Part shown: piece by piece, positions 8,414 to 63,903 of the stretch | Position numbering within the stretch: position 1 is the first letter of the stretch | Layout: every line of letters begins with the position of its first letter | DNA from: Clostridia bacterium | Lineage (GTDB): Bacteria > Bacillota > Clostridia > Christensenellales > DTU072 | Assembly: GCA_035409945.1 (NCBI GenBank) | Contig: DAONQC010000006.1 | Span: 12,570 to 76,569 of the forward strand | DNA length: 64,000 nt | Reading direction: 5' to 3' | Position numbers and translations under genes: made by a program | The notes under the pieces: model-generated | Told to the model about the DNA's origin: nothing | Seen by the model: the letters and a program-made list of their open reading frames with translations, nothing else | Databases searched by the model: none

Positions 8414-8599
8414 ATGAAGAAGATGATAACAAATGACATTAAAAATGCATTTAATGAATATTATAAAAGGCATAAAAAAGGCGATAAGAGCATAAAAAAC
8501 ATCTTGTTTTTAAGTAGCTTCAATATCTGGAAAGCAACAACTGGATGTAAAAAACATTTGCTTCTATCAAATGACTTGAAAAATCAATTTATGATGTAA
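8414..8599 (+). CDS. Hypothetical small basic protein (61 aa)
   Basis: AGGAGG 7 nt upstream of the ATG. No recognisable motif. Confidence 0.3.
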   Translation: MKKMITNDIKNAFNEYYKRHKKGDKSIKNILFLSSFNIWKATTGCKKHLLLSNDLKNQFMM

Positions 8600-8650
8600 A
8601 TCCTGATATAGAGCTAACCATACAATAGTAAAAAAACTGAAATACACAAA

Positions 8651-8706
8651 GTAGTGTTGCTAACCATCTTACTGGTTACATTCAAACGATATTATACGAG
8701 GTAAAA
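8651..8706 (+). promoter_or_regulatory. Conserved hairpin 5' leader, copy A (upstream of LRR gene)
   Basis: GTTGCTAACCA-TCTTAC-TGGTTACATTCAAACGATATTATACGAGGTAAAAATG. Inner stem 8661-8666 / 8673-8678. Confidence 0.7.
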
Positions 8707-9561
8707 ATGAAAAGAAATTTAGATCTTAAAGCTATGTACGAAAAACATGCTTCTACATATCAAAAAATTATGGGAAAAATAAAAGGTAGAAATGTTGAGT
8801 ACTATACTGCGAATAGTGAAGACTGGAATGAAGTTTTGGAAAAAGTAGGCTTTTTTAAAACAGACAATATAGAGGCAGTGATTGCACATAAAGGCTCTAG
8901 ACCACTGGTAATTCAAATGAAAGAAACTTGCGAAGATATAGAGCAAGCATTACTACCTTCCATAGGTGATATACTTAGTTTTTCTGGAATAAAAGCCAAA
9001 TTTGATGGCAATGAATTATCCTTTATGGTTAATTACAATATATATGAAAATCTAGTCTTTTTTGATGAGATTGCATTCTACATATTTAGAGGCGATTATA
9101 AACTAGATGAAGAGGATGGTGTATATTACACTAAAGATGGATTTGTTTATATAAAAGACCTTGGTCGTGCTTCAGCGCTTGGATATGTATATATCCCCGA
9201 AGGTGTTAAGTGTATAGTCGATTATGCATTTTTCGGAAGTAGTTCTCTAGAATTTGTTATTATTCCAAGTAGTGTAGAAAGAATAGGTAGTGCAGCTTTT
9301 TTAAATTGTTATAGTTTAAACGCCATTTTTTACGAAGGAACAAAAGAAGAGTGGGACCAAGTTACCATAAGCCAAGATGGAACTAGAGATTTTGATGAAG
9401 CAAAACTATATTACTACAGCGAGACTGAACCACCCCTAAATTCATCCGGTACAGATTATGGTGATAATTATTGGCGATATTCTGAAAAACCACATAGACA
9501 TAAAAACATAGCCATAGATATAATGCTTGAGGACATGCCAATAGAAGTTTGGGAAAAATAA
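8707..9561 (+). CDS. BspA-type leucine-rich-repeat protein
   Basis: IPEGVKCIVDYAFFGSSSLEFVIIPSSVERIGSAAFLNCYSLNAIFYEGTKEEW repeats. No signal peptide. Confidence 0.7.
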   Translation: MKRNLDLKAMYEKHASTYQKIMGKIKGRNVEYYTANSEDWNEVLEKVGFFKTDNIEAVIAHKGSRPLVIQMKETCEDIEQALLPSIGDILSFSGIKAKFDGNELSFMVNYNIYENLVFFDEIAFYIFRGDYKLDEEDGVYYTKDGFVYIKDLGRASALGYVYIPEGVKCIVDYAFFGSSSLEFVIIPSSVERIGSAAFLNCYSLNAIFYEGTKEEWDQVTISQDGTRDFDEAKLYYYSETEPPLNSSGTDYGDNYWRYSEKPHRHKNIAIDIMLEDMPIEVWEK

Positions 9562-9799
9562 TTGCTTTAGTTAGGAAGGGAAGACAGATTCTGACCTCTT
9601 CGGAGTGAAAAATAACAGATAGTTTAGCATTAAAAAAGACGGTTTGTAATGCCAAGATTGGTATGGGAAAACAACAAATTAGATGTAGGATGAAAAATAC
9701 AGTTTATCTGCCAGAATCATTATTTAGAGAACTTAATTGATGTTTTTCTAAAAGGTTCATTTAATTGTATAATCTAAGGGAAGGATTCAAAATAAATAT

Positions 9800-9858
9800 A
9801 TAATGTTACTAACCATATACACTGGTTAAATTCAAAAACATTATTATACGAGAAACAT
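9800..9858 (+). promoter_or_regulatory. Conserved hairpin 5' leader, copy B (upstream of HipA-like gene)
   Basis: Outer stem AATGTT (9802-9807) / AACATT (9837-9842); inner stem TAACCA (9810-9815) / TGGTTA (9823-9828); then ATTATACGAG. A TATAAT lies at about 9766. Confidence 0.7.
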
Positions 9859-10767
9859 ATGATTGATTTTACAAATTGCAAATTATTATATAAAGCATAT
9901 AGCGGTGCTAATGGAAAGAAAATCTCCATAGAGTACGAAGGACAGCAATATATGCTAAAATTCCCACTTCGTGTAAAAAATATGGCAACGCAATTGTCAT
10001 ATAGTAACAGTTGTTACAGTGAACATATCGGAAGTAGTATATTTAATATGCTTGGAGTCCAAGCTCAAGAAACTATACTTGGCACATATTTGGTTGGTGA
10101 TAAAACAAGATTAGTTTGCGCTTGTTTAGATTTCACGGGTGATAACAAGCACTTCTATGATTTTTGTGCCATTAAAAACACGGTACTTGATTCTACGACA
10201 AGTGGAACTAGTACAGATCTTTATGACATTATAGATACTATCGAAAAGCAAAAATATGTAGACCCTATTTGTTTATCGGAACATTTTTGGAATATGTTTG
10301 TAGTAGATGCTTTTCTTGGTAATTTTGATCGTCATAACTGCAACTGGGGCTTTTTGATAGATGAAAAGACTGGCGAAACAACAATCGCCCCTGTAATTGA
10401 TTGTGGTAGTTGTTTGTTATCACAAGCTGATGAAAGAATTATGACAAAAATTATGACCAATGAAGATGAACTAAATGCGCGTATTTTCACATTTCCTACT
10501 TCAGCTATTAAGCAAAATGGAAGAAAACTTAATTATTATGATTTTTTAACATCTACAGAAATTATAGATTGTCTTAATGCAGTTAATCGTATTGTGCCTC
10601 GGATTGATTTAGGACAAATTAATGAGTTTATAGACAACATTGATGGAACCTCTTCACCTCAAAAGGAGTTTTATAAATATTACCTAAACGCTCGTTATGA
10701 TAACATCCTAGTTCCTGCGTATGAGTTCGCAAAGGCGCAAGATAGAGGCCCATCTTTAGGTCGATAA
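9859..10767 (+). CDS. HipA-like Ser/Thr kinase domain protein
   Basis: GNFDRHNCNWGF (DRHxxN catalytic loop) and IDCGSCL. No adjacent HipB-like gene. Confidence 0.6.
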   Translation: MIDFTNCKLLYKAYSGANGKKISIEYEGQQYMLKFPLRVKNMATQLSYSNSCYSEHIGSSIFNMLGVQAQETILGTYLVGDKTRLVCACLDFTGDNKHFYDFCAIKNTVLDSTTSGTSTDLYDIIDTIEKQKYVDPICLSEHFWNMFVVDAFLGNFDRHNCNWGFLIDEKTGETTIAPVIDCGSCLLSQADERIMTKIMTNEDELNARIFTFPTSAIKQNGRKLNYYDFLTSTEIIDCLNAVNRIVPRIDLGQINEFIDNIDGTSSPQKEFYKYYLNARYDNILVPAYEFAKAQDRGPSLGR

Positions 10768-34337: not shown

Positions 34338-34500
34338 AATAAAGAGCTCCCCATAAAATAAAAAGTTCACGTTCCCACGTGAAAAGAGCTCTTTAGAAGA
34401 GAGAGTGTTCTTTTCGCAATGGAAGGGTAATCCCTTTCGAAGTTACCCCCGGTCTAAACCCATAGCATTGCCTTAGGTGTTTAGACTCGAACATGTCTAT
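34338..34500 (-). promoter_or_regulatory. Structured 5' leader (riboswitch-like, class not recognised) of the ECF-lipoprotein operon
   Basis: 8-bp helix GTCTAAAC/GTTTAGAC (34452-34459 / 34479-34486), hairpin GGGTAA...TTACCC, possible pseudoknot GCAATG/CATTGC, terminator-like TTCACGT-GGGA-ACGTGAA plus T-run (34350-34383), and AAAGAGCTC able to pair with the GAGCTCTTT overlapping the RBS. Confidence 0.5.
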
Positions 34501-34530
34501 ATGATATATAAATATACAGTATTTTGTCAA
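34501..34530 (-). promoter_or_regulatory. Putative promoter of the ECF-lipoprotein operon
   Basis: Perfect TTGACA (34525-34530, minus strand), 18-nt spacer, TATCAT (34501-34506). Confidence 0.4.
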
Positions 34531-40206: not shown

Positions 40207-40267
40207 TTAATGTTGCTAACCATTTAAATTGGTTAAATTTAGACAACATTATTATACGAGGTACAAA
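40207..40267 (+). promoter_or_regulatory. Conserved hairpin 5' leader, copy C (upstream of flavodoxin gene)
   Basis: Outer stem AATGTTG (40209-40215) / CAACATT (40244-40250); inner stem TAACCA (40217-40222) / TGGTTA (40230-40235); then ATTATACGAGG. Confidence 0.7.
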
Positions 40268-40798
40268 ATGAACGGAATTATTTTATACAAGTCAAAATAC
40301 GGCTCAACAAAAAAGTACGCTGATTGGCTATCAGAAGCGACAGGTTTTTCATGTATGGAAACGGATAAAGCAAGTGTTAAATCACTATCTGATGCTGATG
40401 TTATCATTTTAGGCGGTGGTGTCTATGCATCAGGTATAGGCGGACTTAAATTTTTAAGGAAAAACATCGGTGCGTTGAAGGATAAAAAGATTGTTGTATT
40501 TGCTTGCGGAGCATCGCCATATGAAGAAAAAGGCTTTCAGCAACTCAAAGAGCATAACTTAAAAGGAGAGCTGGCTAACCTTCCTCTATTTTATTGCCGT
40601 GGTGCGTGGGATTTAGATTCAATGTCATTTATAGACAGAAAACTATGTAATTTACTAAGAAAAATGCTAGCTAAAAAAGATCCATCGGAATATGAGCCTT
40701 GGGCAAAAGCACTTATGGATGCAGGAGACGCTAAAGCTAATTGGACGGATAAAAAATATATACAGCCAATTCTAAATCACATTGGAAAATCGATATAA
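40268..40798 (+). CDS. Flavodoxin-domain protein
   Basis: MNGIILYKSKYGSTKKYADWL N-terminus typical of flavodoxin-domain proteins. Start set by the conserved leader and RBS. Confidence 0.7.
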   Translation: MNGIILYKSKYGSTKKYADWLSEATGFSCMETDKASVKSLSDADVIILGGGVYASGIGGLKFLRKNIGALKDKKIVVFACGASPYEEKGFQQLKEHNLKGELANLPLFYCRGAWDLDSMSFIDRKLCNLLRKMLAKKDPSEYEPWAKALMDAGDAKANWTDKKYIQPILNHIGKSI

Positions 40799-49877: not shown

Positions 49878-51563
49878 ATGAAAAAACGACTTATTATCTT
49901 TAATACCCTTATTGTAGCAATTGCGCTAATTTTGATGTTTGTGCTAGGCGTTTATGTTACTAAAAACAACAATCGAGAACAAGCCGAAGCCACAATTAAA
50001 AATTTAACCAAGATTTATAGTGGTTATTATTTAAAAAATCCAGATGAAACACCAGTAGTAGTTGATGATATGAGGCTTACAATCATAGAAGCTTCTGGGA
50101 AGGTGACGTTTGATAACAAAGCCGATGTTGCTACTATGGATAATCATATCGATAGAGAAGAGGTGCAGCATGCTTTGGAGGGAAAGCCACAAGTTGTAAT
50201 AAGAAGGTCAAATACATTGAAAAAAGAATTAATGTATTATGCCGAAAAGGTGGATGTAGGGGATAGTTATGTTTTCATTAGAGTGTCAACTACTATAAAA
50301 AGTGTTGATGCATATGTGTTAAAGTCTTTACCACTTATGATAACTATATTCATAGTTTCATTATGGGCTGCGGCAATGGTAAGTATATTTATATCCGATA
50401 GTTTACTTAAACCGTTTAAAGGCATTAAAAGCAGCTTAGAAGCTATAAACAAAGGTTCATACAATCCTGTCCTTCGTTTTTCAGGTGATGCCGAAATTAA
50501 TAGTATACTTGGCGAGATAGACAGGATAAGCGAAAAGATTATGCAAATGGTAGATGCTTCCACTCAAGAAAAGGAAAGAATGGATTTCATTTTTAACAAT
50601 GTTTCAGATGCTATAATCGTCTTCAATTTTAGGGGAGATATTGAACTGATAAATCACAATGCCCTTGATTTGTTTGGAGTTACCAATGCAATAGGTAAAA
50701 AAGCTAATATATTAACTGGCGACACGGTTTTTGTAGATGCAATTCAACAGTGTGTAAAGGAAAGCGAAAATAGTATTTTTGAATATACACATGGCCCCTT
50801 CATATATCTAACAGCAGTAAGAAAAGTGGAAAATAGGTTAACCATTGTAGTTTTATCAGATATTACGGCAACAAAGAATGCTGAGAAAAACAGGAGCGAC
50901 TTCTTTGCGAATGCCTCCCACGAGTTGAAAACACCTTTAACATCAGTAAAAGGATTTAATGAACTTATTATGCTGAAGTCAAAAGACGAGGAAATAAAAG
51001 GTTTTGCTACACATATAGAAAAAGAAAGTACACGTATGCTAGCATTAATTGATGATATGTTAAATCTATCCAAACTAGAAAACCAAAAAGAATTAAAGCC
51101 TATTGATGTTGATCTAAAGGAAGTTACAGACGAAGTTTTTGGTACTCTTTCCCAATTTGCATCCGATAAAAATATCTTACTAAGCGTGCAGGGGAGTGGT
51201 ACTGTCTATGCAGAAAGGGAACATATTTTTGAGGTAATAAAGAATTTAGTAGAAAACGGCATAAGGTATAACAATGATGGCGGAAAAGTCGATGTTAAAA
51301 TCTCTATGAAAAAAGATAAAACCATACTTGAAGTAGAAGATAATGGGATTGGAATAGACGAAAGTAATCAAACCAGAATATTTGAAAGATTTTATAGAGT
51401 TGATAAATCACGTTCAAGAGAAACAGCAGGGACAGGGTTAGGGCTAGCAATCGTTAAACATGCTGCTGAACTATACAATGCGAATGTGAGACTGCAGTCA
51501 AAAATTGGCGTAGGAACATCAGTTAGGGTAATTTTCAAAACCACACCTCATCCAGTCAAGTAA
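49878..51563 (+). CDS. phoR: PhoR-like sensor histidine kinase
   Basis: Two TM segments, PAS-like segment, H-box SHELKTPLTS, and N/G boxes (NGIRYN, DNGIGI, GTGLGLAIV). MKKRLIIF start preferred. Confidence 0.85.
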   Translation: MKKRLIIFNTLIVAIALILMFVLGVYVTKNNNREQAEATIKNLTKIYSGYYLKNPDETPVVVDDMRLTIIEASGKVTFDNKADVATMDNHIDREEVQHALEGKPQVVIRRSNTLKKELMYYAEKVDVGDSYVFIRVSTTIKSVDAYVLKSLPLMITIFIVSLWAAAMVSIFISDSLLKPFKGIKSSLEAINKGSYNPVLRFSGDAEINSILGEIDRISEKIMQMVDASTQEKERMDFIFNNVSDAIIVFNFRGDIELINHNALDLFGVTNAIGKKANILTGDTVFVDAIQQCVKESENSIFEYTHGPFIYLTAVRKVENRLTIVVLSDITATKNAEKNRSDFFANASHELKTPLTSVKGFNELIMLKSKDEEIKGFATHIEKESTRMLALIDDMLNLSKLENQKELKPIDVDLKEVTDEVFGTLSQFASDKNILLSVQGSGTVYAEREHIFEVIKNLVENGIRYNNDGGKVDVKISMKKDKTILEVEDNGIGIDESNQTRIFERFYRVDKSRSRETAGTGLGLAIVKHAAELYNANVRLQSKIGVGTSVRVIFKTTPHPVK

Positions 51564-51988: not shown

Positions 51989-52064
51989 TGGTGGGAACAA
52001 CAGGGCTCGAACCTGTGACCCCATGCGTGTAAAGCATGTGCTCTCCCAGCTGAGCTATGCTCCC
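51989..52064 (-). tRNA. tRNA-Val (anticodon UAC)
   Basis: GGGAGCATAGCTCAGCTGGGAGAGCACATGCTTTACACGCATGGGGTCACAGGTTCGAGCCCTGTTGTTCCCACCA. Cloverleaf is foldable and CCA is encoded. Confidence 0.9.
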
Positions 52065-52231
52065 ATCGAACATTTAGCGCATGTAGAGAAGGTCTAAACA
52101 TTTCTCTTGCTATGGATAAGCATAACAAAGCGAGAGTTAAAAGTCTAGTATTTTTTTATTTATCATAATAACATTGAGACCGAGACCTTAAATTGATTGA
52201 AAATATTTTGGTATAAAAGGCAGTGCTACAT

Positions 52232-52360
52232 TTCGATTATAGTCGAAGAAAATATGTAAATTTATAAAAGTTTTGATTACAGTCGAAAAATATAGGTAAA
52301 TTAGAAAAAGTCTGGTTATGGTCGAAGAGAAGATGGTGGTGGCAAAGATTTGGAAGTGTT
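52232..52360 (+). repeat. Three degenerate tandem repeats of about 42 nt between tRNA-Glu and tRNA-Val
   Basis: TTCGATTATAGTCGAAGAAAATATGTAAATT... / TTTGATTACAGTCGAAAAATATAGGTAAATT... / CTGGTTATGGTCGAAGAGAAGATGG... Confidence 0.7.
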
Positions 52361-52373
52361 TTAAACTTAACCA

Positions 52374-52404
52374 TATAAAAAGCATCCGTCGAAATGCGGA
52401 TGCT
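52374..52404 (-). terminator. Terminator after the fMet-Met-Glu tRNA cluster
   Basis: AGCATCCG (52381-52388) / CGGATGCT (52397-52404). The minus strand continues TTTTAT. Confidence 0.6.
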
Positions 52405-52416
52405 TTGTATATTCTT

Positions 52417-52492
52417 TGGTGACCTCAAGGGGATTCGAACCCCTACTGTCGCCGTGAAAGGGCGGTGTCCTAACCTACTAGACGATGAGGCC
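52417..52492 (-). tRNA. tRNA-Glu (anticodon UUC)
   Basis: GGCCTCATCGTCTAGTAGGTTAGGACACCGCCCTTTCACGGCGACAGTAGGGGTTCGAATCCCCTTGAGGTCACCA. Confidence 0.9.
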
Positions 52493-52501
52493 ATCAACGT
52501 T

Positions 52502-52578
52502 TGGTAGCGGCGGTCGGAGTCGAACCAACGACCTGCCGGGTATGAACCGGCCGCTCTAACCAACTAAGCTACGCCGCC
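52502..52578 (-). tRNA. tRNA with CAU anticodon (elongator Met, or Ile2 if lysidinylated)
   Basis: GGCGGCGTAGCTTAGTTGGTTAGAGCGGCCGGTTCATACCCGGCAGGTCGTTGGTTCGACTCCGACCGCCGCTACCA. The anticodon stem lacks the three G-C pairs of initiators. Confidence 0.85.
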
Positions 52579-52592
52579 AAGATTGATGGTAT

Positions 52593-52667
52593 TGGTAGCG
52601 GGGGAGGGATTCGAACCCACGACCTCTGGGTTATGAGCCCAGCAAGCTACCTCTGCTCCACCCCGCG
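52593..52667 (-). tRNA. Initiator tRNA-fMet (CAU)
   Basis: CGCGGGGTGGAGCAGAGGTAGCTTGCTGGGCTCATAACCCAGAGGTCGTGGGTTCGAATCCCTCCCCCGCTACCA. Has a 1-72 mismatch (C1/U72) and GGG/CCC in the anticodon stem. Confidence 0.9.
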
Positions 52668-57852: not shown

Positions 57853-58008
57853 CTACACATTGAACCTGAACAGGATGACGTCGCCTTCACGAACGACATA
57901 GTCTTTTTCCACTTAATGCGTATTGCTTACAGTTCGATGTTTGAAATATACTCAATATTCCAAAGCTATACATTGAACCTAAACATTGAACCTAAACATT
58001 GAACCTGA
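57853..58008 (-). repeat. 3' echoes of ychF at two scales (58-nt copy 139 nt downstream; 13-nt unit x3 across the stop codon)
   Basis: 57853-57910 is about 93% identical to 57992-58047. ACATTGAACCTAA repeats at 57970, 57983 and 57996. Confidence 0.9.
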
Positions 58009-59077
58009 ATAGGATGACATCGCCTTCACGAACGACATAGTCTTTTCCTTCGGAACGAACTTTTCCTTTTTCTTTAGCGACATTGTACGAGCCACATTCA
58101 AGCAAGGTGTCATAGTCTATGACCTCTGCACGAATAAAACCACGCTCAAAATCGGTATGGATGGTGCCAGCAGCTTGAGGAGCCTTAGTTCCAATAGGTA
58201 TGGTCCAAGCTCTAGATTCGGTGGGGCCGGCAGTTAAGAAACTCATAAGTCCTAGTAGTTTGTATGATTTTTTGATAAGCTTTTCTAGACCAGTGGTTTC
58301 AATACCTAATTCTTTAAGAAATTCAGCCCTCTCTTCGGGAGGTAAATCAGCAAGTTCTGCTTCTAGTTTTGCTTTTAAAACCACGACCTCGCTACCTTCG
58401 TTCTCAGCATATTCTTTAACTTTTTGAACATAGTCATTGTCTTCAGAATCATCTTCTGCTATGTTTGCGCAGTATATAACTTTCTTGGTTGTTAAGAGAA
58501 ATAGTGAATTTACAAAAGGTTGTTCTTCTTCTTTGATTGGGGCAAGTCTAGCACATTTCCCGTCGGACAAAGTATTGTATATTTTTTCAAGTATGGCATA
58601 CTCATCTTTATACTTTTGTTCACCGCTTTTCATCATTGTGCGAGTTTTGTCCATTCTTCTATTAAGGATTTCAAGGTCGGAAAGTATGAGTTCTAAATTG
58701 ATGTCTTCGATATCTCTAATGGGGTCTGTTGAGCCTGCGACATGGGTAATGTTGGGGTCGTCAAAACATCTTACAACATGAACTATTGCATCTACTTCTC
58801 TTATGTGAGATAAAAATTTATTACCTAGACCTTCGCCTTTACTAGCTCCTTTGACAAGGCCAGCAATATCTGAAAATTCTATATATGTATGAGTTACTTT
58901 CTTGCTGTTATAAAGTGCTGCTAATTTATATAATCTTTCATCTGGAACTTCTACCACTCCGATATTTGGGTTGATGGTACAAAAGGGGTAGTTTGCTACC
59001 GCTGCTCCAGCTGAAGTGAGTGCATTAAATATGGTGCTTTTTCCTACATTAGGAAGTCCAACAATACCTAATTTCAT
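57992..59077 (-). CDS. ychF: Ribosome-binding ATPase YchF
   Basis: GIVGLPNVGKST P-loop, TGS-like C-terminal domain ending EGDVILFRFNV. Confidence 0.95.
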   Translation of the reverse strand: MKLGIVGLPNVGKSTIFNALTSAGAAVANYPFCTINPNIGVVEVPDERLYKLAALYNSKKVTHTYIEFSDIAGLVKGASKGEGLGNKFLSHIREVDAIVHVVRCFDDPNITHVAGSTDPIRDIEDINLELILSDLEILNRRMDKTRTMMKSGEQKYKDEYAILEKIYNTLSDGKCARLAPIKEEEQPFVNSLFLLTTKKVIYCANIAEDDSEDNDYVQKVKEYAENEGSEVVVLKAKLEAELADLPPEERAEFLKELGIETTGLEKLIKKSYKLLGLMSFLTAGPTESRAWTIPIGTKAPQAAGTIHTDFERGFIRAEVIDYDTLLECGSYNVAKEKGKVRSEGKDYVVREGDVILFRFNV

Positions 59078-59106
59078 TTATTTTTTCACCTCGTATAATA
59101 TATTAA

Positions 59107-59241
59107 ATTCTTCGTTTAGGAAGGTTATGCTTTATTAAATTTATCCATATTAGCAACAAAGTTTTTACGAGCCTCTCTAGTATTATCTACTTTCTTCCAA
59201 GGGATTGACAGCTCTTCTACAATCTCTGCCGTATACCTTTG
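59107..59241 (-). repeat. 3' echo of the sigH-like gene (135 nt, 148-nt period, reading frame preserved)
   Basis: The echo translates QRYTAEIVEELSIPWKKVDNTREARKNFVANMDKFNKA*, versus the real QGYTYAEIAEELSIPQKKVDNTIMASKKKIAANMDKLNKA*. Confidence 0.9.
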
Positions 59242-59272
59242 ATACTATATCAAGCTCTTCGTTGTAGGAAGG

Positions 59273-59842
59273 CTATGCTTTATTAAGCTTATCCATATTT
59301 GCTGCAATTTTTTTCTTACTAGCCATTATGGTGTTATCTACTTTCTTTTGAGGAATCGACAGTTCTTCTGCAATCTCTGCATATGTATATCCTTGTACGT
59401 ATAGAGACCAAACTTCAAGTTGAAGGGGGGATAGAATATCTTTTAATATGTGGGAAACTGCGCTAGCCCGTTGCTTAGTTAATAGGTTTTGATATGGGTC
59501 TATTGTGTCGTCTGCAGTATCGTCTTTTACCTCAAAACGAGCGCTAGGGACAATTCGGTTTTTCTTGCGAAGTATGGTAAATAGTCTATTTTTCATACAG
59601 CGCTCGGAATAGTAATACAAACTATTATATTTATCATAGTCGAAAGTTTCTACTGCTTTGACAAAAGCAACCATCGCTTCCTGGACTAAATCATCTTTAT
59701 CTATGACAGGGGATATAAAAGGTTTACTAACATCAATACAAACTTTATGAATAGCTGCTTCATATTTTTTTATGAGCTGATTTAAAGCTTCTTTATCGCC
59801 TTTTTGTGCACGGCTTATTAATGTTTTTTCATCTACTTTCAT
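59273..59842 (-). CDS. sigH: Sigma-70-family sigma factor, SigH-like by synteny
   Basis: Region 2 (DDLVQEAMVAFVKAV) and region 4 HTH (YTYAEIAEELSIPQKKVDNTI). Located downstream of rlmB as in Bacillus. Confidence 0.7.
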   Translation of the reverse strand: MKVDEKTLISRAQKGDKEALNQLIKKYEAAIHKVCIDVSKPFISPVIDKDDLVQEAMVAFVKAVETFDYDKYNSLYYYSERCMKNRLFTILRKKNRIVPSARFEVKDDTADDTIDPYQNLLTKQRASAVSHILKDILSPLQLEVWSLYVQGYTYAEIAEELSIPQKKVDNTIMASKKKIAANMDKLNKA

Positions 59843-59933
59843 ACTGTTCTCCAGATTGTAGAGGGGCTTACAACCTCTATCTCTAAAAGTATATCACATT
59901 ACTTTTAAACCTTATCAGAACTAATTTAGCAAG

Positions 59934-60665
59934 TTATATCTTATTATTTCGTTGTCTAACTGCTTCGTATAATAAAATTCCAGTTGCAACAGAAGCATTT
60001 AGTGAATTAATCTTTCCTAGTTGTGGAAGGGACACAACTAAATCGGATAGTTTTCTTGGTAGTTCGTGTAATCCTTCACCTTCTCCGCCAATAACTAGAG
60101 CAATATTGCCAGTCATATCAGAAGTGAAAGCATTTTCACCATTCATATCAGCTGCGATTATTTTCACACCTTGTTGTTTTAAGTATCTAATAGCATCATT
60201 GATGTTTGTTACTTTTGCTACTGGGACATGAGCAGTCGCACCAGCGCTAGTTCTAATTACAATTTCAGTGACGCTTGCGCTTCTGTGTTTTGGGATGATG
60301 ACAGCACTCGCTCCTGAACAGTCGGCTACCCGAATTATAGCCCCTAGGTTATGTGGATCTTCAACTCCGTCTAAAAGTACAAATACAGCTGGCTTATCGC
60401 CACTAAGGGCTTTTTGTACAACGTCTTCAAACACTGCATAAGTAAAATCAGTGGTAATAGCCATAATGCCTCTGGCTCTACCCGTTTCCGACTTTGCTTT
60501 GAATGCTTGCTCATCTAAAATCATCACCTTAACGCCTTGTTTTCTTGCAAGAGCAATTGCTTCATTTGTAGAGCGTTCAAAGTTGCCTTTTTGAACATAC
60601 AATGTTTCTACGGTTACATCGCCTTTTAAAGCTTCTAGTACCGCATTTCTTCCTTCTAATAACAT
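59934..60665 (-). CDS. rlmB: 23S rRNA 2'-O-ribose methyltransferase, RlmB/TrmH (SpoU) family
   Basis: DGVEDPHNLGAIIR, LVIGGEGEGL, and SLNASVATGILLYE SpoU motifs. mrnC-rlmB synteny. Confidence 0.85.
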   Translation of the reverse strand: MLLEGRNAVLEALKGDVTVETLYVQKGNFERSTNEAIALARKQGVKVMILDEQAFKAKSETGRARGIMAITTDFTYAVFEDVVQKALSGDKPAVFVLLDGVEDPHNLGAIIRVADCSGASAVIIPKHRSASVTEIVIRTSAGATAHVPVAKVTNINDAIRYLKQQGVKIIAADMNGENAFTSDMTGNIALVIGGEGEGLHELPRKLSDLVVSLPQLGKINSLNASVATGILLYEAVRQRNNKI

Positions 60666-60722
60666 AATTCCCTCGTATACAACACTGTTATGAATTTAAC
60701 CAATATATGGTTAACAATATTG
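60666..60722 (-). promoter_or_regulatory. Conserved hairpin 5' leader, copy D (upstream of rlmB)
   Basis: Sense strand reads CAATATTGTTAACCATATATTGGTTAAATTCATAACAGTGTTGTATACGAGGGAATTATG. Inner stem 60696-60702 / 60708-60714. The outer stem is kept through G-U pairs. Confidence 0.7.
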
Positions 60723-60760
60723 TTTATATTTTATTTAAATCGTAGCTTAACGCTAATGCT

Positions 60761-61180
60761 TTAATTCGTGTTCGGGTATGCAATCTCCATTAAGCTTGCT
60801 AGTCTTTCATCTTGCCCAGTGAGATATAGATAACCAATTAGACCTTCAAAACCAGATGCTAGGTTATATTCTGCTACTGAGCTATGTTTAGGTACATTGG
60901 GGTTACAGGAGTTTCTACATCTTTTAAAAATGGTAGATTCGTCTTCAGTCAGTATGCTTTCGATGTTTTTAATAGCAACAGCTTGTGCGGGAGCACTGAC
61001 TTCCTTAGAGGCAATACTATGTAAAACCCTAATTTTACATTTTTTACATGTGGCAAGTCTGGACCTTACATATACTGAATGAACCGAGTCCCCAACATAC
61101 GCGAGCACATCTGCAGAAAGCAGGGCAGCTTCTTCATTTTTTAGGGGTTGTTTATGCCTTGGCATATATTGTTCATTCAT
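60761..61180 (-). CDS. mrnC: Mini-ribonuclease III
   Basis: LAYVGDSVHSVYVR RNase III-like signature, about 140 aa, synteny with rlmB. Confidence 0.85.
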   Translation of the reverse strand: MNEQYMPRHKQPLKNEEAALLSADVLAYVGDSVHSVYVRSRLATCKKCKIRVLHSIASKEVSAPAQAVAIKNIESILTEDESTIFKRCRNSCNPNVPKHSSVAEYNLASGFEGLIGYLYLTGQDERLASLMEIAYPNTN

Positions 61181-63338: not shown

Positions 63339-63558
63339 GTTATTGAAGTGGCTCGTAAAGAGGCCTAAAGGCATGCCATAATGCTTGCTAACTATTACGA
63401 GAGCATTGGTGTAGGATAGCATATGCTGTGTGGCTAAGCTACTTTATCTTGGATTGAATTGGCTCTCAAAGAATCTAAAGGCAGGTAGCAATGCTTGCTA
63501 ATCATTACGAGAGTATTGGTGTAGGATTCGAATGTTGTGTGGCTAAGCTACTTTATCT
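63339..63558 (-). repeat. 3' echoes (2 copies, about 110-nt period) of the 63559-63903 gene
   Basis: (G)TTATTGAAGTGGCTCGT(C)AAAGA(A/G)G(T/C)CTAAAGGCATG at 63340 and 63559. A more diverged copy, GGATTGAATTGGCTCTCAAAGAATCTAAAGGCAGG, lies at 63451. Confidence 0.8.
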
Positions 63559-63903
63559 TTATTGAAGTGGCTCGTCAAAGAAGTCTAAAGGCATGTCTTT
63601 TATCGAGGTTGCTACCACTAGATTCAAAATGATGGAGATTACACAATATAAGCATATTGCTAAAATAGGTATGTCTATTTTTCTTAAGAATGTCCTGAAT
63701 TTGCCAACTGGTTTTACTTTAGTTTGAGTTTCATTAACTTGCGTTTCGGCATCCATAACCTCCGCTTGCGCTTCGGTAGTGGCAACCAAATCCTTATCTT
63801 CTACTTGACTAGTCGATTCGGTTTGTGAAGCGTCCTGAGCGATTGGGCCATATTGATTTTCAGCATATATATCTTCTAGTTGATATTTGGCAGTAGTGCA
63901 CAA
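63559..63903 (-). CDS. Hypothetical acidic protein with C-terminal TM anchor (the 5' end may extend beyond the listed Met)
   Basis: ORF with the TM segment IPILAICLYCVISIILNLVVA. No motif recognised. Confidence 0.4.
   Translation of the reverse strand: MCTTAKYQLEDIYAENQYGPIAQDASQTESTSQVEDKDLVATTEAQAEVMDAETQVNETQTKVKPVGKFRTFLRKIDIPILAICLYCVISIILNLVVATSIKDMPLDFFDEPLQ

Follow-up and report, generated by a model that had tools for sequence, protein, structure and literature searches.

The window analysed here, a stretch of 64,000 nt from a Christensenellales MAG whose RlmB is 95% identical to that of GCA_900198705.1, carries four copies (A-D) of a short hairpin-forming element, each lying shortly before a start codon. 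The four sites had been proposed in a first-pass annotation of the window, and the sequence at each of them confirmed both the copies and the genes behind them, which encode an LRR_5 protein, a HipA_C kinase-like protein, a flavodoxin (Flavodoxin_5) and the SpoU methylase RlmB. The loop lengths reported there (6, 7, 7 and 5 nt for A, B, C and D, respectively) were also correct. All copies have a common layout, which consists of an A-rich flank, AATGTTG, a single C, TAACCA, the loop, TGGTTA, a AAUUCAAA-like internal loop, CAACATT and ATTATACGAGG, and the gap from the end of the element to the ATG is 4-6 nt.

In copy A, located on the plus strand, an A-rich, single-stranded 5' flank (aaaaaaactgaaatacacaaag, 8630-8651) precedes the two-tier hairpin at 8652-8694, which is identical to the MFE fold and scored 53.6 bits with the covariance model described below. 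Its outer stem (8652-8659/8687-8694) encloses a bulged C (8660), the inner stem (8661-8666/8673-8678) with its loop (8667-8672) and a 3' internal loop (8679-8686). The tail (8695-8709) consists of TAC-GAGG with the SD at 8698-8701, a spacer and the ATG at 8707 of the LRR_5 gene (8707-9561, +). The hairpin of copy B (9801-9843, +; 72.0 bits) has an outer stem at 9801-9807/9837-9843, whose innermost pair is lost, and an inner stem at 9810-9815/9823-9828; the tail TTATACGAGAAACAT and the ATG at 9859 occupy 9844-9861, in front of the HipA_C gene (9859-10767, +). Copy C (40208-40251, +; 79.6 bits) is the nearest of the window copies to the family consensus, and three digester contigs from its own species carry an identical hairpin. 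The outer stem at 40208-40215/40244-40251, the bulged C at 40216, the inner stem at 40217-40222/40230-40235 and the loop at 40223-40229 are followed by the tail TTATACGAGG (SD at 40258-40261) and the ATG at 40268 (40252-40270) of the flavodoxin gene (40268-40798, +). Copy D, on the minus strand, forms its hairpin at 60680-60722 (57.8 bits), 39 nt past the stop codon of mrnC. It comprises the outer stem 60722-60715/60687-60680 (CAAUAUUG/CAGUGUUG), the inner stem 60713-60708/60702-60697 and the tail TATACGAGGGAATT with the ATG at 60665-60663 (60663-60679) of rlmB (59934-60665, -). The annotation had assigned an outer stem to copies B, C and D. These were borne out, as AATGTT(G)/(C)AACATT in B and C and as CAATATTG/CAGTGTTG, pairing through two G.U, in D, while the outer stem of copy A (AGTGTTG/CGATATT, with three G.U pairs) had been missed.

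The inner-stem pattern TAACCA-N4-9-TGGTTA gave four matches in the 64-kb window when 0.07 was expected, and none of 100 shuffles reached four. The string TATACGAG was found six times against an expectation of 1.4; four of these are the tails of the element, one lies before ychF and one is intragenic. With the covariance model, built from 29 homologues, copies A-D scored 53.6-79.6 bits (E 4e-10 to 4e-16), and the next match in the window, at 18.5 bits, was copy C read in antisense. A partial match at 50000-50026 (-) is antisense within a coding region and was set aside as probably due to chance. Comparison with the 4227 families of Rfam 15 gave no match at any window copy at the gathering thresholds, and on copy C at E up to 10 only snoRNA/miRNA-model noise of 12-18 bits was obtained. 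Elsewhere in the window, a Moco/tungsten-cofactor riboswitch (34391-34504, -; 47 bits) and four clustered tRNA genes (51992-52667, -) were seen. Two further suggestions of the annotation did not hold. The supposed half copy before ychF (59088-59100) has only ATTATACGAGGT in common with the element, its apparent 5' half TTGCTAATATGGATAAATTTA is a duplicate of the 3' coding end of the adjacent sigma-factor gene, and the relative with 95% identity has ATTAGAGGTGAA at the position of the ychF tail (SD). As for the related cores described in the tandem repeat at 63340-63593, they run antisense to the surrounding genes and score under the model threshold.

Pattern scans, the covariance model and a look-up of rlmB orthologues together yielded 35 distinct copies of the element. 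The scan of GTDB species genomes, with a pattern in which the upper part of the inner stem was unconstrained, gave approximately 30 chance matches and five true ones, all of the latter in Clostridiales MAGs (three in AS21ysBPME_203, one each in Iy174_bin51 and Gx485_bin36). Approximately 25 more distinct copies came from metagenomes, on anaerobic-digester and activated-sludge contigs and on a second group of contigs, which is termed here the termite-type clade and shares clade-specific features with the Iy174 and Gx485 MAGs. The search with a covariance model, as the annotation had advised, found six further divergent copies beyond the 29 of the model itself, five in the flanks of fetched loci and one upstream of the rlmB orthologue in locus L074. 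The carriers, an uncultured group, are Christensenellales-like MAGs of anaerobic digesters and termite-gut-type metagenomes. Among the sequences sampled, the local density was about one copy per 3-20 kb. No true match was found in the phage, plasmid and viral collections searched, and the 0.82 Mb of fetched sequence contained neither solo inner hairpins nor inverted copies nor copies at gene 3' ends. A literature search by sequence string and by concept returned no description of the motif.

Of the 35 copies, 34 are sense-oriented and stand 4-13 nt ahead of a gene's start codon. The lone exception in position, also in sense orientation, is the first unit of a tandem pair at L042 8827-8995 (-), where the whole unit of flank, hairpin and tail is duplicated with a period of approximately 113 nt; this first unit has no gene behind it, and both units carry a compensated change of U-A to C-G in the outer stem. 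The genes behind the copies are unrelated to one another, including those for class II aldolases, SDR, PurE, ArgR, HisG, NagB, a GH20 hexosaminidase, an aminotransferase, an MFS transporter, RelB and HigA antitoxins and a PSP1/YaaT-like protein, and their functions are a mixture of housekeeping, metabolism, toxin-antitoxin and surface proteins. The idea of a shared or portable leader, raised in the annotation, holds up and has gained considerable support from the larger set of copies.

In the alignment of the 35 sequences, 98.5% of the stem cells of the two-tier hairpin can pair, when compared to just 18-68% for registers shifted by 1-3 columns. Changes on both sides affect five of the 14 pairs, four in the outer stem (U-A/C-G, A-U/G-C, G-C/A-U and U-A/C-G) and one at the top pair of the inner stem (A-U/G-C); many of the compensatory cells come from one clade (seven), so the number of independent events is small, about 5-6. 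The sense strand is paired to 98.5% and the antisense strand to 93.2%. The non-Watson-Crick cells comprise 31 G.U against five A.C, a bias that becomes 10 versus 3 when distinct pair types are counted and is then suggestive rather than conclusive, and part of the G.U excess could reflect strand-biased mutation. The cleanest evidence for structure in these comparisons is the orthologous rlmB pair. Between copy D and its counterpart in L074 (95% protein identity), six transitions have occurred in the outer stem, all of which keep the pairing, two being complete compensations and two yielding G.U, while the inner helix and AAAUU are unchanged. Taken together, the substitution patterns demonstrate, as far as an alignment can, that structure has been under selection on the sense strand. 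The annotation had preferred a sense-strand RNA hairpin to a fixed-spacing operator or a -35/-10 pair, and this preference is upheld by the pairing and its compensations, by the wobble bias of 31 to 5 towards the sense strand, by the rlmB orthologues and by a hexamer spacing that is wrong for a promoter.

The two helices behave differently. The outer helix of 7-8 bp varies in the manner described above, and no variation was found across the copies in the inner helix UAACC/GGUUA and the AA following it. The inner stem had been called invariant in the annotation, which is right for these five pairs and wrong for the closing pair, where A-U, G-C and G.U all occur. Most copies were found by patterns that fix UAAC, GGUUA and the tail, and the invariance of these parts is therefore partly a matter of ascertainment. 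The six model-found copies, none of which was selected by the search pattern and which are hence less biased, also keep UAACC/GGUUAA, and no inner-helix variants were present among the outer-stem pattern matches in the 0.82 Mb. From these alignments, the outer helix may be read as selected for pairing and the inner helix as selected for sequence. One bulged pyrimidine (C, rarely U) is located on the 5' side and an internal loop of 8-9 nt on the 3' side. The loop ranges from 3 to 10 nt across the copies, with no conserved sequence.

The consensus fold corresponds to the MFE fold (94% of consensus pairs) and is of modest stability (-3.5 to -15 kcal/mol, mean z -1.8). In the six sequences whose folds were inspected, the SD was unpaired in both MFE and centroid structures. 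An extension of the outer stem into the flanks (UAAAGU/AUUAUA) was rejected, as position -2 is often C opposite U and covariation is absent. Neither a leader peptide MKYIK* in the A-rich flank nor a mini-ORF (ATG..TAA) within the hairpin, which is in phase only with a 7-nt loop, has a conserved frame or start codon.

The element is missing at the orthologous site in relatives whose protein identity is 83% (flavodoxin, L082), 74% (rlmB, L078) or approximately 60% (L083-L086), indicating that it is lineage-restricted and turns over. The window flavodoxin itself is identical to proteins on digester contigs. Before the 83% flavodoxin orthologue, positions 455-512 of L082 carry ATATGTTAACTTATGGACTAAATAGAAAGGTTTTATTAGGAGG, which lacks the inner helix, falls under the model threshold and looks like a decayed copy of the element. 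In the 74% relative, another small hairpin (GUGC-AUAA-GCAC, L078 3375-3400) stands directly 5' of the rlmB SD (GGAGG), and this lineage may more generally place a hairpin next to the SD. The block mrnC-rlmB-sigma-ychF, which in the window (57992-61180, -) is spread by spacers of 95, 91 and 195 nt, is compact in L083-L086, where neighbouring genes overlap by 1-4 nt or leave no more than 57 nt between them; in these relatives of about 60% identity mrnC and rlmB overlap by 4 nt or are 57 nt apart. As for filled and empty sites, the 74-83% relatives are too diverged for a clean pair, and no flanking direct repeat was evident. A tblastn comparison of the window proteins against the loci, made for carrier-genome distance, gave too few orthologues.

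The mean pairwise identity of the copies is 0.72-0.89 over approximately 56 nt of element. For six digester-type genomes, identity was 0.784 within genomes and 0.785 between them, indicating that a shared consensus is maintained. The termite-type clade consistently has G-C at two soft pairs, with G.U intermediates elsewhere. On these sequence comparisons, an old dispersed family held to its consensus by selection appears to fit better than recent genome-specific bursts. Another kind of repetition was observed in the same lineage, namely tandem "echo" duplications of gene 3' ends together with the sequence just downstream. A 110-nt unit is repeated 2.3 times at 63340-63593 of the window, including the stop region of the ORF at 63559-63903 (-); the C-terminal end of the sigma-factor gene is duplicated before ychF (59090-59131 and 59247-59290); and the 3' end of mrnC, single in the window, is duplicated in two relatives (L074 9760-9850 and L078 3120-3290). 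Duplication at gene boundaries looks like a habit of the whole lineage.

The approximately 20 nt 5' of the hairpin are A-rich with a TATA-like box in the 29 copies examined, and T is found at position -1 in 28 of these 29, where it pairs with A47. Seven copies lie 28-103 nt past a co-directional gene, several of them within 28-76 nt, a short distance that makes it very likely that they sit within polycistronic RNA; other copies head operons. Sigma-70-like sites accumulate 40-69 nt 5' of the hairpins, including two perfect TTGACA-17-TATAAT promoters before a relB gene. This location suggests, from the predicted sites, that primary transcripts do not begin at the hairpin, so that a 5'-terminal stabiliser would need processing. 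Two additional upstream features were noted. Six termite-type copies (L022, L045, L052, L053, L057 and L071) have an extra conserved module approximately 70 nt upstream of the hairpin, composed of a strong inverted repeat, (T)AGGGAAACCTTTTT..AAAAAGTTTTCCCT(A), and then CCTTCCAAAAACAATATAT; its CCUUCC is C-rich and anti-SD-like, and the module is missing from the digester-type copies. A second motif, GGAGCTAAC(N)GTAYAATAG(Y), lies approximately 25-45 nt 5' of the hairpin in the window (8611-8629) and in L048, L062, L038, L051 and L037. It repeats GCTAACC(A)T of the hairpin 5' arm and holds a TAYAAT -10-like box, and could be a local promoter or the relic of an older copy.

We interpret the element, with moderate confidence, as a dispersed family of cis-acting mRNA leader and intercistronic elements that would support both stability and translation. 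The unit would belong to the sense transcript, as part of a 5' UTR or of an intercistronic region, and would comprise four parts, which are an unstructured A/U-rich tract of approximately 20 nt, the two-tier hairpin with an outer helix conserved as structure and the inner UAACC/GGUUA and AA conserved as sequence, an AUUAUA-type spacer, and an exposed SD (GAGG) 4-13 nt before the start codon. Placed just outside the ribosome footprint on the SD and exit channel, the hairpin may keep the initiation region free of the upstream context. An RNase Y-type endonucleolytic cut in the A/U-rich tract would then leave the hairpin as a cap that protects the mRNA behind it from degradation in the 5'-to-3' direction. 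RNase Y is known to cut AU-rich single strands beside a structure, as at the B. subtilis gapA site CAAAGAA^GU (PMC3997798); the common flank here is ACAAAGU followed by the hairpin. Each gene would in this manner acquire a standard, autonomous leader for stability and translation. Since the inner helix is invariant, a conserved partner, either a protein or the ribosome, is suggested to read it. The same invariance, together with conserved loop bases, counts against our interpretation, as a plain stabiliser would need neither. The weak folding energy of the hairpin also speaks against it.

Because the invariant inner helix suggests a conserved reading partner, the main rival is a factor-dependent regulon, in which one trans-acting RNA-binding protein or small RNA would bind UAACC/GGUUA and its AA and switch the translation or decay of all genes with the leader on a global signal, the outer helix only presenting the site. 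We regard this as possible, at a clearly lower level of confidence. An inner helix of invariant sequence beside a covarying outer helix agrees with it, as does the lack of inner-helix variants in the 0.82 Mb, and the equality of identity within and between genomes is what would be expected of a consensus held by a common partner. The genes behind the copies, however, are without a common function, the SD was not sequestered in the folds examined, the loop sequence is not conserved, and the window yielded neither a candidate partner nor a complementary RNA. A riboswitch or RNA thermometer acting on translation was rejected on account of the unpaired SD in the six inspected folds and the functional incoherence of the downstream genes; a conserved anti-SD segment was not found in any digester-type copy.

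It is rather improbable, in our estimation, that the element is a self-propagating translation-initiation cassette, whose hairpin and SD are copied precisely before start codons, split overlapping coupled genes and are read by a partner. Formerly overlapping, translationally coupled genes would thereby become independently initiated, with mrnC-rlmB as a case, and an inner helix like the 23S ends might link the genes with factors of ribosome biogenesis, for example Mini-III or L3. The inner helix (G)CUAACC/GGUUAAAU (e.g., at 40216-40238 of the window) resembles what we take to be the paired ends of 23S rRNA (3' CUUAACC and 5' GGUUAAG), and the same 5 bp presumably also resemble the base of 16S helix 45 (h45). 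The helix above ACC is just 1 bp, and copy D comes directly after mrnC, the gene for Mini-III. The natural site of Mini-III is formed by the paired 23S rRNA ends, with a preference for ACC^U (PMC4357697). The likeness of the inner helix to the 23S ends is likely a coincidence.

Readings of the element as DNA or as a terminator are less likely than either the preferred leader function or the regulon. A promoter or operator cassette, with TTGCTA as -35 and TAAATT as -10, or the loop TTTACA with CATTAT, the A-rich flank as UP element, the palindromes as operator of a dimeric repressor and the mRNA starting downstream of the hairpin, is judged unlikely. The hexamers do resemble sigma-70 boxes with an A-rich tract exactly upstream, a location before many unrelated genes is typical of promoters, and a promoter must be close by where a copy is preceded by a terminator (L051) or a short gap. 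Nevertheless, the spacer between TTGCTA and TAAATT is 13-16 nt, when compared with 16-18 nt in sigma-70 promoters, four of the six model-found copies deviate at the last T, T-7 (TAAATC, TAAACT, TAAATG and TAAATA), and TTG has become CTG in two copies with a compensating change in the 3' arm 35 nt away. The palindromes are asymmetric (1 nt versus 8-9 nt between the stems) and their loop varies over 3-10 nt, which is unfit for a symmetric dimer site; the wobble bias is strand-specific; and promoter-like sites were not enriched in a scan of the region of copies A and B. The candidate boxes, whether a -10 in the A-rich flank, TTTACA/CATTAT or TTGCTA/TAAATT, were all weak or inconsistently spaced.

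A selfish miniature mobile repeat of the MITE, REP or IS200/IS605-PATE kind, with a hairpin that a transposase would recognise in single-stranded DNA and a position before genes that would be incidental or only tolerated, is very unlikely. Dispersed copies before non-homologous genes must stem from duplication, presence, absence and decay differ among close relatives, the L042 unit is duplicated in tandem, genes that overlap in relatives are parted by the element in the window, and tolerance of G.T also fits hairpins of single-stranded DNA. Such a repeat is difficult to reconcile with the sense orientation of all 35 copies and with the fixed start-codon distance and own SD of all but the first L042 unit, as well as with the lack of solo, inverted and 3'-end copies in the 0.82 Mb. 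The orientation follows the gene rather than the strand (three window copies are on the plus strand and one on the minus strand), no long terminal repeat or target duplication was apparent, no match was obtained in the phage, plasmid and viral collections, and within-genome similarity is not in excess. A MITE or Correia-like repeat would have terminal inverted repeats of approximately 20 bp or more and a target-site duplication; the outer stem here measures just 7-8 bp. A weak intrinsic terminator or attenuator partitioning operons, formed by the hairpin and AUUAUUAUA in sense or by the hairpin and a U-rich tract in antisense, is hardly credible, for although the A-rich tract, hairpin and U-containing tail resemble a degenerate bidirectional terminator, no U run follows the stem (the tail being AUUAUUAUAC), the AU-rich stems are weak (-3.5 to -15 kcal/mol), a scan of 8450-9900, the region of copies A and B, detected zero terminator-like sites, the sense strand gives the better structure, and an SD invariably adjoins the element.

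Of the named families considered, most are defined by features that the element lacks. For an integron attC site, GTTAAAT fits GTTRRRY, but TGCTAAC misfits RYYYAAC; AAC/GTT is part of the inner stem, and the copies precede scattered core genes. A REP/RAYT assignment was rejected, since all 35 copies are in sense before a start codon and GTAG occurs in only a few flanks; dif/Xer sites, IRE, K-turns, CsrA sites and ECF promoters were dropped after comparison by eye with their consensus features. The MIRU repeats of mycobacteria are intercistronic repeats of operons that adjoin the start of the next gene, in tandem units of 46-101 bp containing small ORFs for translational coupling, whereas the present element has no conserved ORF and would work as a hairpin. 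TD-1 of Treponema denticola, an orphan family of Rfam, is a lineage-restricted multi-copy motif in likely 5' UTRs of unrelated genes; the element is like such orphan motifs in being lineage-restricted and structured, and matches no Rfam family.

Putative mobile promoters are similar non-coding sequences upstream of non-homologous genes that are shared by related taxa, some families of which are RNA motifs rather than promoters; they were surveyed in the -150 to -50 region with at least 50 nt at at least 80% identity (Matus-Garcia, Nijveen and van Passel 2012, PMC3575422). The element is similar in that the same sequence stands before non-homologous genes in one genome and also in related taxa. 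It differs in its location at about -75 to -5 with the SD included, in the covariation of its hairpin and in lying probably downstream of the promoter. The 5' stabilisers and processed leaders of Firmicutes, such as the aprE 5' stem-loop, ermC, the cryIIIA STAB-SD and the RNase Y-processed cggR-gapA (PMC3997798), have a stem-loop and/or strong ribosome binding near the mRNA 5' end, as may be the case here, and the gapA site resembles the flank of the element. They are, however, single-gene leaders without a common sequence, whereas the element is one sequence family for dozens of genes. REP/BIME, ERIC, Correia/NEMIS and the pneumococcal BOX/RUP are short multi-copy intergenic hairpin repeats, transcribed along with genes, which can alter mRNA stability or processing (PMC3575422, PMC3049150). 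These occur in both orientations, mostly at 3' ends or variable sites, and none is fused to an SD and start codon; Correia repeats have longer terminal repeats, and REP a GTAG head and a cognate transposase, in contrast to an element at fixed distance to the SD.

If the element is a functional RNA, it would be a previously undescribed and abundant leader motif in Christensenellales-like bacteria, a little-studied lineage of digesters and insect guts. A whole 5'-UTR module of hairpin, spacer and SD would then be reusable before dozens of unrelated genes, and the idea of promoter reuse would be extended to signals for translation and stability. From the invariance of the inner helix, an RNA-binding partner is predicted, which might be isolated. 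For practical use, the element marks true start codons in the annotation of MAGs, and it is a candidate portable expression part for anaerobic Firmicutes.
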